Virus record (IMG/VR): IMGVR_UViG_2703718851_000002 | Span: 1-5,407 of that record | Direction: 5' to 3' (one strand) | DNA: 5,407 nt | From: a virus | Taxonomy: Duplodnaviria; Heunggongvirae; Uroviricota; Caudoviricetes | Shown: positions 420-1,134 of the stretch, in pieces | Position numbering within the stretch: position 1 is the first letter of the stretch | How the letters are laid out: every line of letters starts with the position of its first letter | The notes under the pieces: model-generated | The model's input: only the letters and a program-made list of their open reading frames with translations | Told to the model about the DNA's origin: nothing | Databases searched by the model: none | Made by a program: the position numbers and the translations under genes

Positions 420-935
420 TTATACGGCTTTTTTTACATCTTGTGGTTCTTGTGAAGGAGCTACAAAACCTTCCTGTTCATGAATACCATACTCTGACAA
501 AATCTCTTTGCGCGCATCTGCTGGTAAAGTTTCTAGCATTTGGGCTAGTTGTATGCACTCACGCGATACGCCGTGCAGAGATTGGATTTGAGTCTGATCA
601 AAGATACTTGGCATTAGTGCTCCAAGTCCGCCTTTACTAAGTAGCTTTAATGCCCTCTGGATTTCCTCTGGTTCTAACTCTGCGACCAAAGCCATTAACA
701 CAGAAGCTAACTTATAAGCTGGCTTATCGCTATCTAATAACTGCGCCCCTCCTAATTCTGCCTGAGTGGCATCAGGTAATGAGCTGATATGGTATTCATA
801 AGCAACTCCCTTTACTCCTTTGATCTGTCTCTTTTTCCATCCCTCATTAGTTGCTTTGCGGCTAATACTACTTGCTGAAGACGGAAGACCAGCAACCCCT
901 TGTAGCTCTTTAGCTGAAAACCATTCTTGTGTCAT
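420..935 (-). CDS. c: Mu-family lysogenic repressor c (D108-like variant; N-terminal winged-helix DNA-binding domain)
   Basis: Supplied ORF 420..938(-). C-terminal half (..[37 protein letters not shown]) closely resembles Mu Repc as recalled; N-terminal part diverges, consistent with a heteroimmune relative. Track start at 938 is GTG only 3 nt after a GAGG Shine-Dalgarno; ATG at 935 (MTQEWFSAK..) is the likelier start. Confidence 0.9.
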
Positions 936-938
936 CAC

Positions 939-1134
939 AAACCTCGCTTTAAATACACTGTGTATTCAAAGAAACAAAAATATATTCATTTTAAAATCAT
1001 CAAGATAGATGAAATTCAAACGAAATATTTGAATACATCATTGCATTGACAATGTATTCACACTAACATTGCTGCATACCTTGTCAGCTACCTTGCGGCG
1101 TAGCTGATGGCGTAGCTTGTGAGGATTGCATTTT
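939..1134. promoter_or_regulatory. c-ner divergent control region (expected early/repressor promoters, operators, IHF site, transposition enhancer)
   Basis: AT-rich 196-bp interval between divergent c and ner start codons. In Mu this interval carries Pe, Pc, operators O1-O3 and the IHF site, and the operators double as the transposition enhancer. Individual sites not mapped here. Confidence 0.55.

Follow-up and report, generated by a model that had tools for sequence, protein, structure and literature searches.

The window analysed here, a single stretch of 5,407 nucleotides taken at its full length, contains a Mu-like prophage remnant of 4,916 bp (82-4997, ~4.9 kb) with both Mu ends present. 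Over bases 1-5392 it matches, at 100% identity, the chromosome of Escherichia coli N61 (NZ_AP028880.1), a strain from milk in bovine mastitis in Japan, and the last 15 bases have no match to the N61 genome; the other genomes in a set of 5,426 complete E. coli genomes contain at most about half of the window. Read from left to right, the element consists of the repressor gene c, a 199-bp control region, ner, a stub of the transposase gene A, the remains of the G segment, gix, gin, com, mom and an open reading frame like gene 56 of D108 (Table 1). It is bounded by a direct repeat of 5 bp, the length of target duplication typical of Mu transposition, and deleting 82-5002 in silico makes the host reading frame continuous again. 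The left end has 95% DNA identity to bases 1-458 of Mu, and the right end matches those of D108 and PhiR68_1 at 98-99.7%. The transposase-binding consensus RAARYRCGAAAR has exactly six sites without mismatch in the window, three at the left end and three at the right. Three sites at each end (L1-L3 and R1-R3), the 5-bp target duplication and the lack of a transposase give the element the makeup of a mini-Mu.

Table 1. Features of the prophage remnant and its insertion site, in window coordinates.
Feature	Position	Strand	Details
Host gene yjiT/druH	upstream part 4998-5392; downstream part 1-81	-	split by the element
Target-site duplication, 5 bp	left 77-81; right 4998-5002		GGGAA; read from the sequence
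Mu-type left end attL	82-260	+	begins TGTATTGATTCAC; cores L1 97-108, L2 202-213, L3 242-253
c repressor gene	420-935	-	171 aa; ATG at 935; GAGG ribosome-binding site 6 nt upstream
O1-like palindrome, 25 bp, beside the c start	947-971		CTTTAAATACAC-T-GTGTATTCAAAG; core TGTATTCA at 961-968; from inverted-repeat and motif searches
O2-like inverted TGTATTCA pair, 13-bp spacer	1028-1060		cores 1030-1037 (-) and 1053-1060 (+); from inverted repeats
Candidate Pc	1052-1024	leftward	TTGTCA 1052-1047, 17 nt, AATATT 1029-1024; from the promoter scan
Candidate Pe	1041-1069	rightward	TTGCAT 1041-1046, 17 nt, TAACAT 1064-1069; from alignment with D108 (TTGATT-17-TACATT)
Ner-operator-like inverted repeat	1084-1107		TCAGCTAC-8 nt-GTAGCTGA; extra GTAGCT at 1112-1117
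ner, Cro-like second regulator, intact	1135-1353	+	72 aa; Pfam HTH_35, E=4e-25
Transposase A stub	1356-1532	+	44 genuine codons (to 1488), 14 out-of-context codons, stop
Deletion junction, 3-bp microhomology TAA	1486-1488		from a three-way comparison with PhiR68_1 A and the intact tail-fibre assembly gene of FDAARGOS_1059
G-segment remains	1489-2829	-	tail-fibre assembly gene (to 1802, 3'-truncated); variable C-terminal part of the tail-fibre gene 1804-2829
gix recombination site, single	2812-2837		only match at <=3 mismatches
gin, serine invertase, intact	2892-3473	+	Pfam Resolvase, HTH_7
com-mom, DNA-modification operon, intact	3568-4414	+	com 3568-3756, mom 3677-4414; Pfam Zn_ribbon_Com, Mom
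D108 gene 56-like ORF	4459-4905	+	148 aa; signal-peptide-like N-terminus; phrog_15648, E=8e-88
Mu-type right end attR	4931-4997	-	cores 4931-4942 (+), 4949-4960 (-), 4971-4982 (-); terminates ...CGCTTCA at 4997

Both arms of the element are nearly those of Escherichia phage PhiR68_1 (PV340575.1), with 99.8% identity on the left (80-1488) and 99.7% on the right (2800-4997). PhiR68_1 is a 37-kb phage with a full Mu gene set of 54 genes, described in its GenBank record as a complete genome with the host E. coli C, a record from which its viability is presumed. The window tracks the A gene of PhiR68_1 until 1488, and from 1486 it tracks the inside of a tail-fibre assembly gene, as seen by comparison with FDAARGOS_1059. 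The two tracks overlap by the three bases TAA, so that one illegitimate recombination event removed ~32.2 kb relative to a PhiR68_1-like parent. What went with it, measured against the 54 genes of PhiR68_1, is A past codon 44, B, kil, gam, mor, C, the lysis and head genes and nearly all of the tail genes, so that the description of the element in the earlier note as one that has lost its lytic functions is borne out.

The G segment tells a little more about the parent. Its remains, a tail-fibre gene without the constant N-terminal part and an assembly gene that PGAP calls a pseudogene (Pfam Caudo_TAP and Gp34_trimer), are 95-96% identical to SfMu and other prophages, and 93% and 86% identical to the PhiR68_1 copy that lies in the opposite orientation. 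Because this type differs from the PhiR68_1 copy adjoining gin, the direct parent was either a relative of PhiR68_1 or a form of it with the G segment inverted; inversion is now impossible in the remnant, since the partner of the single gix site has been deleted. Besides the missing ~32.2 kb from A to the tail genes and the other G-segment type, the remnant differs from PhiR68_1 in two bases at the centre of the O1-like palindrome, whereas the c and Ner proteins are identical, and the ends and the gene-56-like frame the same, in the remnant, in PhiR68_1 and in equivalent prophages of 14 complete E. coli genomes. We also considered a laboratory mini-Mu construct as the source of the element, which we rejected in view of the non-Mu immunity region, the bovine mastitis host and the microhomology junction between A and the G segment.

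The c gene lies where a Mu-family c is expected, at the left end beside attL and divergent from ner-A. Its product matches Pfam HTH_Tnp_Mu_1 (PF02316; E=2.2e-22, residues 9-139) and PHROG 7148, 'transcriptional repressor' (E=3.6e-48), and its first 60 residues correspond, at about E=1e-6, to DNA-binding domains of known structure, 1TNS of the Mu transposase and 1G4D/1QPM of the Mu repressor. The Mu-type winged-helix DNA-binding domain occupies approximately residues 4-61. PhiR68_1 has a repressor with 100% identity to this protein (XSB43397.1 / WP_019841371.1). At 10 of 10 other sites inspected, each in a different host gene, an identical c adjoins a complete ner-A-B-kil, and a Megablast search with the c region finds only this copy in N61. 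The earlier note had described an apparently intact c repressor together with its control region and had placed both accurately: the 171-aa frame is complete, and bases 925-1140 contain none that is private to the N61 copy when it is set against seven relatives with a full-length A.

The control region (936-1134) differs from that of PhiR68_1 at two bases only, 959 and 960. Damage to an operator by these two substitutions was considered and rejected; they fall in the palindrome centre (958-961), which is hypervariable among relatives while its flanks are conserved, and each base also occurs in relatives with a full A. The 8-mer TGTATTCA has three exact copies in the window, all within 961-1060, where 0.23 would be expected window-wide and 1 of 200 shuffled sequences reached three. 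We infer that the repressor would bind the palindrome at 947-971, within which one copy lies, although this first core varies in single relatives. [quoted passage not shown] At the level of sequence, then, repeated operator-like cores in the c-ner intergenic region overlap a candidate early promoter, as they do in the Mu family.

Pc and Pe themselves are candidates at the consensus level. A scan of 300-1500 for consensus sigma-70 promoters gave one match, the leftward one at 1052-1024, which does not stand above shuffled sequences; a looser scan recovered the annotated Pe of Mu and the D108 candidate, and scored the homologous Pe site here at 7/12. Closer to ner, the inverted repeat at 1084-1107 aligns with the D108 repeat CCGTGAGCTAC-8 nt-GTAGCTCACGG, which we take to be the D108 Ner operator. 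IHF sites belong to the Mu and D108 switches, and the IHF consensus WATCAANNNNTTR has no match with up to one mismatch in 936-1134, the consensus being loose and 972-1027 being A/T-rich. The ner gene that follows encodes a protein identical (100%) to Ner of PhiR68_1 and 62.5% identical to that of D108.

What could such a remnant do for its host? Cloned pieces of the Mu left end, and mini-Mu elements that are c+, make their hosts immune to Mu. In Mu itself, lysogeny and immunity are maintained by an intact repressor of this family together with its own operators and promoters at the left end (PMC3820752). The reading that we prefer, and to which as a whole, including its narrow immunity, we give a probability of roughly 70%, is that the element derives, through a recent internal deletion, from a Mu-like transposable prophage of the PhiR68_1 type. 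On this reading the prophage entered druH/yjiT by Mu transposition, generating the 5-bp duplication, and a single later illegitimate recombination at the 3-bp microhomology removed everything from A codon 45 up to the 3' part of the tail-fibre assembly gene. The left-end switch was spared whole: c and ner, with the stretch between them that holds the TGTATTCA cores, the candidate divergent promoters and the Ner operator. In this host c would most likely be expressed from the c promoter, in the manner of an intact lysogen, and the repressor would bind the operators that contain TGTATTCA, closing the early promoter that reads into ner and the A stub of the remnant, and likewise that of an incoming phage with the same operators. 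A PhiR68_1-type phage deprived of A and B expression would then neither integrate nor replicate. The anatomy, the intactness and the parentage of the element, like the distinctness of its specificity determinants, can be read from the sequence comparisons, and expression of c, binding of its product to DNA and the immunity phenotype are predicted from analogy with intact relatives. Immunity through c and its operators is plausible, and it would be a side effect of the deletion having left the switch in place. The claim of the earlier note that the cassette would repress an incoming homoimmune phage thus keeps its mechanism, with c and the operators intact and the lethal genes gone; the specificity for Mu and D108 that its proposed challenge implies is another matter, to which we return below.

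Has the cassette been kept because it is useful? The remnant occurs in 1 of the 5,426 complete E. coli genomes. An exact-protein look-up found the A-stub fusion frame on 14 contigs and the truncated assembly frame on 8, and all of these contigs have the element at the same site beside the same helicase gene, with 100% identity to the window over the stretch that each contains. The remnant is therefore one clone; in the absence of any divergence the intactness of c reflects recency, and a recent deletion explains it equally well. A selected or domesticated defence would be expected to persist across diverged lineages, or to bear signs of purifying selection that date from after the lytic genes went, which is not what is seen among these 14 contigs, with one site and zero substitutions in the stretches present. 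The idea that the retained cassette is an adaptation consequently finds no support. The literature on Mu illustrates that c is dispensable for survival of a host such as this one, in that Mu c can be deleted only once lytic development has been eliminated (PMC3820752).

The same observations allow another view, in which the element is an inert relic whose c is intact through recency alone and is not usefully expressed, or meets homoimmune phages too rarely to matter. A clone of 14 identical contigs at one site has had no time for either decay or selection, the immunity module is found in only 15 of 5,426 complete E. coli genomes (~0.3%), and a 35-mer spanning the junction has no match in the collections of metagenomes, species-representative genomes and viral contigs that were searched. 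However, all cis elements of intact lysogens are present and unaltered, so that non-expression would need a special reason, and the exact c protein is common in public assemblies, where it occurs in 4,520 index blocks, which argues that homoimmune phages do circulate. We consider the relic an unlikely description of the element.

Immunity, if it exists, need not be constitutive. As ner has been kept, the cassette would probably behave as a two-state switch, and because the killing functions have been deleted while ner and its operator have not, a state with Ner on and c off would no longer be lethal. It is thus conceivable that the switch sits in, or flips heritably to, such an 'anti-immune' state, leaving some or all cells without immunity. 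Defective lambda prophages have an anti-immune state, and Ner, in Mu as in D108, is a repressor of two promoters, that of c and the early one. Here nothing has been lost from ner, the operator-like repeat or the early-promoter region, and counter-selection is gone along with the genes that would kill a derepressed cell; the Mu-like C-terminal tail of c may, in addition, make derepression in stationary phase possible in a protease-dependent manner. On the other hand, Ner represses its own promoter too, which may let c re-establish itself, wild-type Mu lysogens are very stable, and we found no literature evidence for a stable anti-immune state in Mu, all of which makes this outcome quite unlikely in our judgement. 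Whatever its state, a natural minimal switch in which c, operators and ner have been freed of the lethal genes would be a convenient object for the question of Mu-type bistability.

Returning to the preferred reading, that of a recent deletion derivative with narrow immunity, the phages that its repressor would exclude can be narrowed down from the repressor and its operators. The remnant resembles Mu in the order and orientation of its left-end genes, in its attL and attR sites, in a PF02316 domain that is paralogous to the transposase N-terminus, and in the C-terminal part of c, which is 56% identical to that of Mu (34% to that of D108), including 22 of the last 27 residues and the terminal VKKAV. 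The 95% DNA identity to Mu that starts at attL gives out near base 540, still within the 3' end of c. In residues 1-65, the DNA-binding part, by contrast, identity amounts to only 34% with Mu c and to 54% with D108 c; the stop of Mu identity within the gene together with the differing affinities of the two parts marks c as a mosaic. The domain is closer still to the N-terminus of PhiR68_1 A, at 63%, a value above its identity to the c of any other phage. An alignment of repressors and transposase N-termini gives the presumed recognition helix the signature S(S/A)ISRKA here, TNITRKA in D108 and AGV(H/I)Y(R/V)A in Mu, and in each of the three phages the repressor and its own transposase have a common signature. 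Unlike Mu, the remnant has a c of 171 rather than 196 aa, unrelated operators and a Ner that is 45% identical.

With D108 and SfMu the remnant has in common the layout of the control region, the positions of the 8-bp cores, the 8-nt spacer of the Ner operator and a short c (171-174 aa). The TGTATTCA copies align column for column with the D108 repeats TGATTTCA/TGATTTGA/TGATTCCA, whereas the cores themselves differ, D108 having four copies of TGATT(T/C)(C/G)A (TGATTYSA). TGTATTCA is absent from the control regions of Mu and D108, and the D108-type core is absent from those of the remnant and of Mu. Mu and D108 are reportedly heteroimmune through exactly the segment formed by c, the operators, ner and the A N-terminus (title of Mizuuchi et al. 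1986). The c protein of SfMu is 89% identical to that of D108, which places SfMu in the D108 group (PMC4406740). Among 50,697 phage records, PhiR68_1 alone has a repressor more than 60% identical to the one here. We therefore suggest that the c/operator/ner/A-N-terminus module, common to the remnant and PhiR68_1, defines a third immunity group among the Mu-like phages of E. coli, beside those of Mu and D108/SfMu.

Could the cassette nevertheless be homoimmune with Mu or D108, or both, and exclude those phages? The Mu-like end of c and the Mu-like DNA from attL to the 3' end of the gene would speak for Mu, and the closer DNA-binding domain, the repeat positions and the Ner-operator spacer for D108. 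Homoimmunity would take the same recognition determinants and operators, and what is found are a DNA-binding domain remote from that of Mu, a helix signature unlike those of both phages in c as well as in the cognate A, operator cores that are not interchanged with either control region, and, among the 50,697 phage records, a sole close relative in PhiR68_1. We regard such homoimmunity as improbable. Taken separately, Mu is very unlikely to fall under the immunity of the remnant; D108 is unlikely to do so, with partial cross-immunity possible given the 54% identical domain and the RKA common to the two helices. Immunity conferred by the remnant would accordingly span the PhiR68_1 type, almost certainly not Mu, and probably not D108/SfMu. 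It follows that Mu and D108, which the earlier note had proposed as challenge phages, are the wrong choice, and phages of the PhiR68_1 type the appropriate one: with an immunity of a third type both would most likely plate equally with and without the cassette, and the idea of immunity would be falsely refuted.

That a defective prophage retains its repressor is a well-known pattern, and the remnant leaves current understanding unchanged. Like repressor-retaining defective lambdoid prophages, it has kept a repressor, operators and a Cro-like partner after the loss of lytic functions. Unlike them, it draws on unrelated protein families, and a repressor of the Mu type also occupies the transposition enhancer and binds the Mu ends, directly inhibiting transposition (PMC3820752). 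A second comparison is with the mini-Mu elements of the laboratory. These combine a c+ or cts left end with a right end and have A and B deleted; the remnant, at 4.9 kb, likewise has both ends, six A-binding sites, the operator/enhancer and c without a transposase, and differs from them in its natural origin, in having kept gin-com-mom, in the lack of a marker and in showing no sign of movement.

The deletion has also given the genes of the right arm a new setting. It brought gin, com, mom and gene 56 to within 1.4-2.5 kb downstream of the candidate early promoter, all reading in the sense direction, while C, the late activator of com-mom, is deleted. Terminator prediction gave nothing convincing of the intrinsic kind, either behind c or in the stretch from Pe to com, and the 1.36-kb untranslated stretch behind the early promoter may be subject to Rho-dependent termination. 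The gene-56-like frame is annotated as 'D108-specific protein' in D108 and PhiR68_1 and has no Pfam or PADLOC match. The earlier note's view that protection would come at no lytic risk holds in so far as the lethal functions are deleted; its price includes a split druH, and gin-com-mom now stand in sense behind the early promoter.

One might go further and see in the element a natural, satellite-like mini-Mu that is packaged by helpers and enforces its own repressor. The Mu packaging site lies within the left end, and heteroimmune Mu-like phages have transposase cores that are 99% identical, so that a helper could in principle act on the six A-binding sites and the enhancer/operator and replicate and package the remnant; if so, ~34 kb of adjoining host DNA would be packaged too, with c meanwhile excluding homoimmune phages, and, if loss of c switched on toxic Mom modification, c would be under an addiction-like pressure to be kept. 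This is a far-fetched reading; no mobilisation to new sites was seen, and the flanks are identical on all contigs with a junction frame.

The insertion site has an interest of its own. Excising the element restores a frame of 1,096 aa that matches PADLOC DruH3 end to end, and the neighbouring helicase of 2,114 aa matches PADLOC DruE3 end to end; the YjiT family is the DruH of Druantia III (PMC13192584). The insertion splits druH at approximately residue 965 and has thereby inactivated it in this clone, so the net effect of the element on phage defence is probably a loss rather than a gain.

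The Mu-like remnant retains both sets of transposase-binding sites (six of six) and an intact 5-bp duplication, and these features together make it a natural mini-Mu. It could in principle be mobilised by a heteroimmune Mu-like helper; all 14 known copies occupy one shared site.

Through the deletion, the early promoter now also has gin-com-mom lying downstream in sense orientation, and no strong intrinsic terminator is predicted between the two. Expression of Mom upon derepression is therefore possible, and a function that is normally tightly silenced might be released in this way. 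Because a single gix site remains, the intact gin encodes an invertase without a substrate inside the element; its only possible targets would be other invertible segments, acted on in trans. Beyond mom lies an ORF resembling gene 56 of phage D108, which is present in D108 and in the complete Mu-like phage PhiR68_1 but missing from Mu; its N-terminus resembles a signal peptide, and it may be a cargo gene expressed by the prophage.

The repressor gene c is itself a mosaic. Starting at attL, the DNA is 95% identical to Mu as far as a point inside the 3' end of c, where the identity breaks off, so that the C-terminal tail is Mu-like, whereas the DNA-binding half is distantly D108-like. Within the control region, the 4-bp centre of a palindrome varies in nearly all of the eight control regions compared, which are otherwise 95-100% identical, while its arms are conserved; this centre is a mutational or selective hotspot.

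Coordinates of features in and around the remnant
Feature	Window	Remarks
yjiT/Druantia locus	1-81 + 4998-5392	1329-8081 + 12961-15897 in L001, another stretch with its own numbering
Transposase-binding sites	82-260, 4931-4997
c 3' end, Mu-like	420-540
Control-region palindrome	947-971	centre 958-961
Early promoter to gin-com-mom	1076-4414	+ strand
gix	2812-2837	sole site left
gin	2892-3473
D108 gene 56-like ORF	4459-4905	148 aa; between mom and attR; phrog_15648
Final 15 bases	5393-5407

On the host side, the remnant interrupts yjiT. PADLOC DruH3 matches the whole of the reconstructed yjiT product (1096 aa), and the adjoining 2114-aa helicase matches DruE3. Together they identify the locus as a Druantia system of type III, whose DruH is broken near residue 965 in the E. 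coli N61 clone; mcrBC adjoins the system there. At its 3' edge the window reads GTACTGACCCCAAAA, where the N61 chromosome and the clonal contigs instead read CTGCAATGAGCGG; the window may derive from a different assembly or carry an end artefact.
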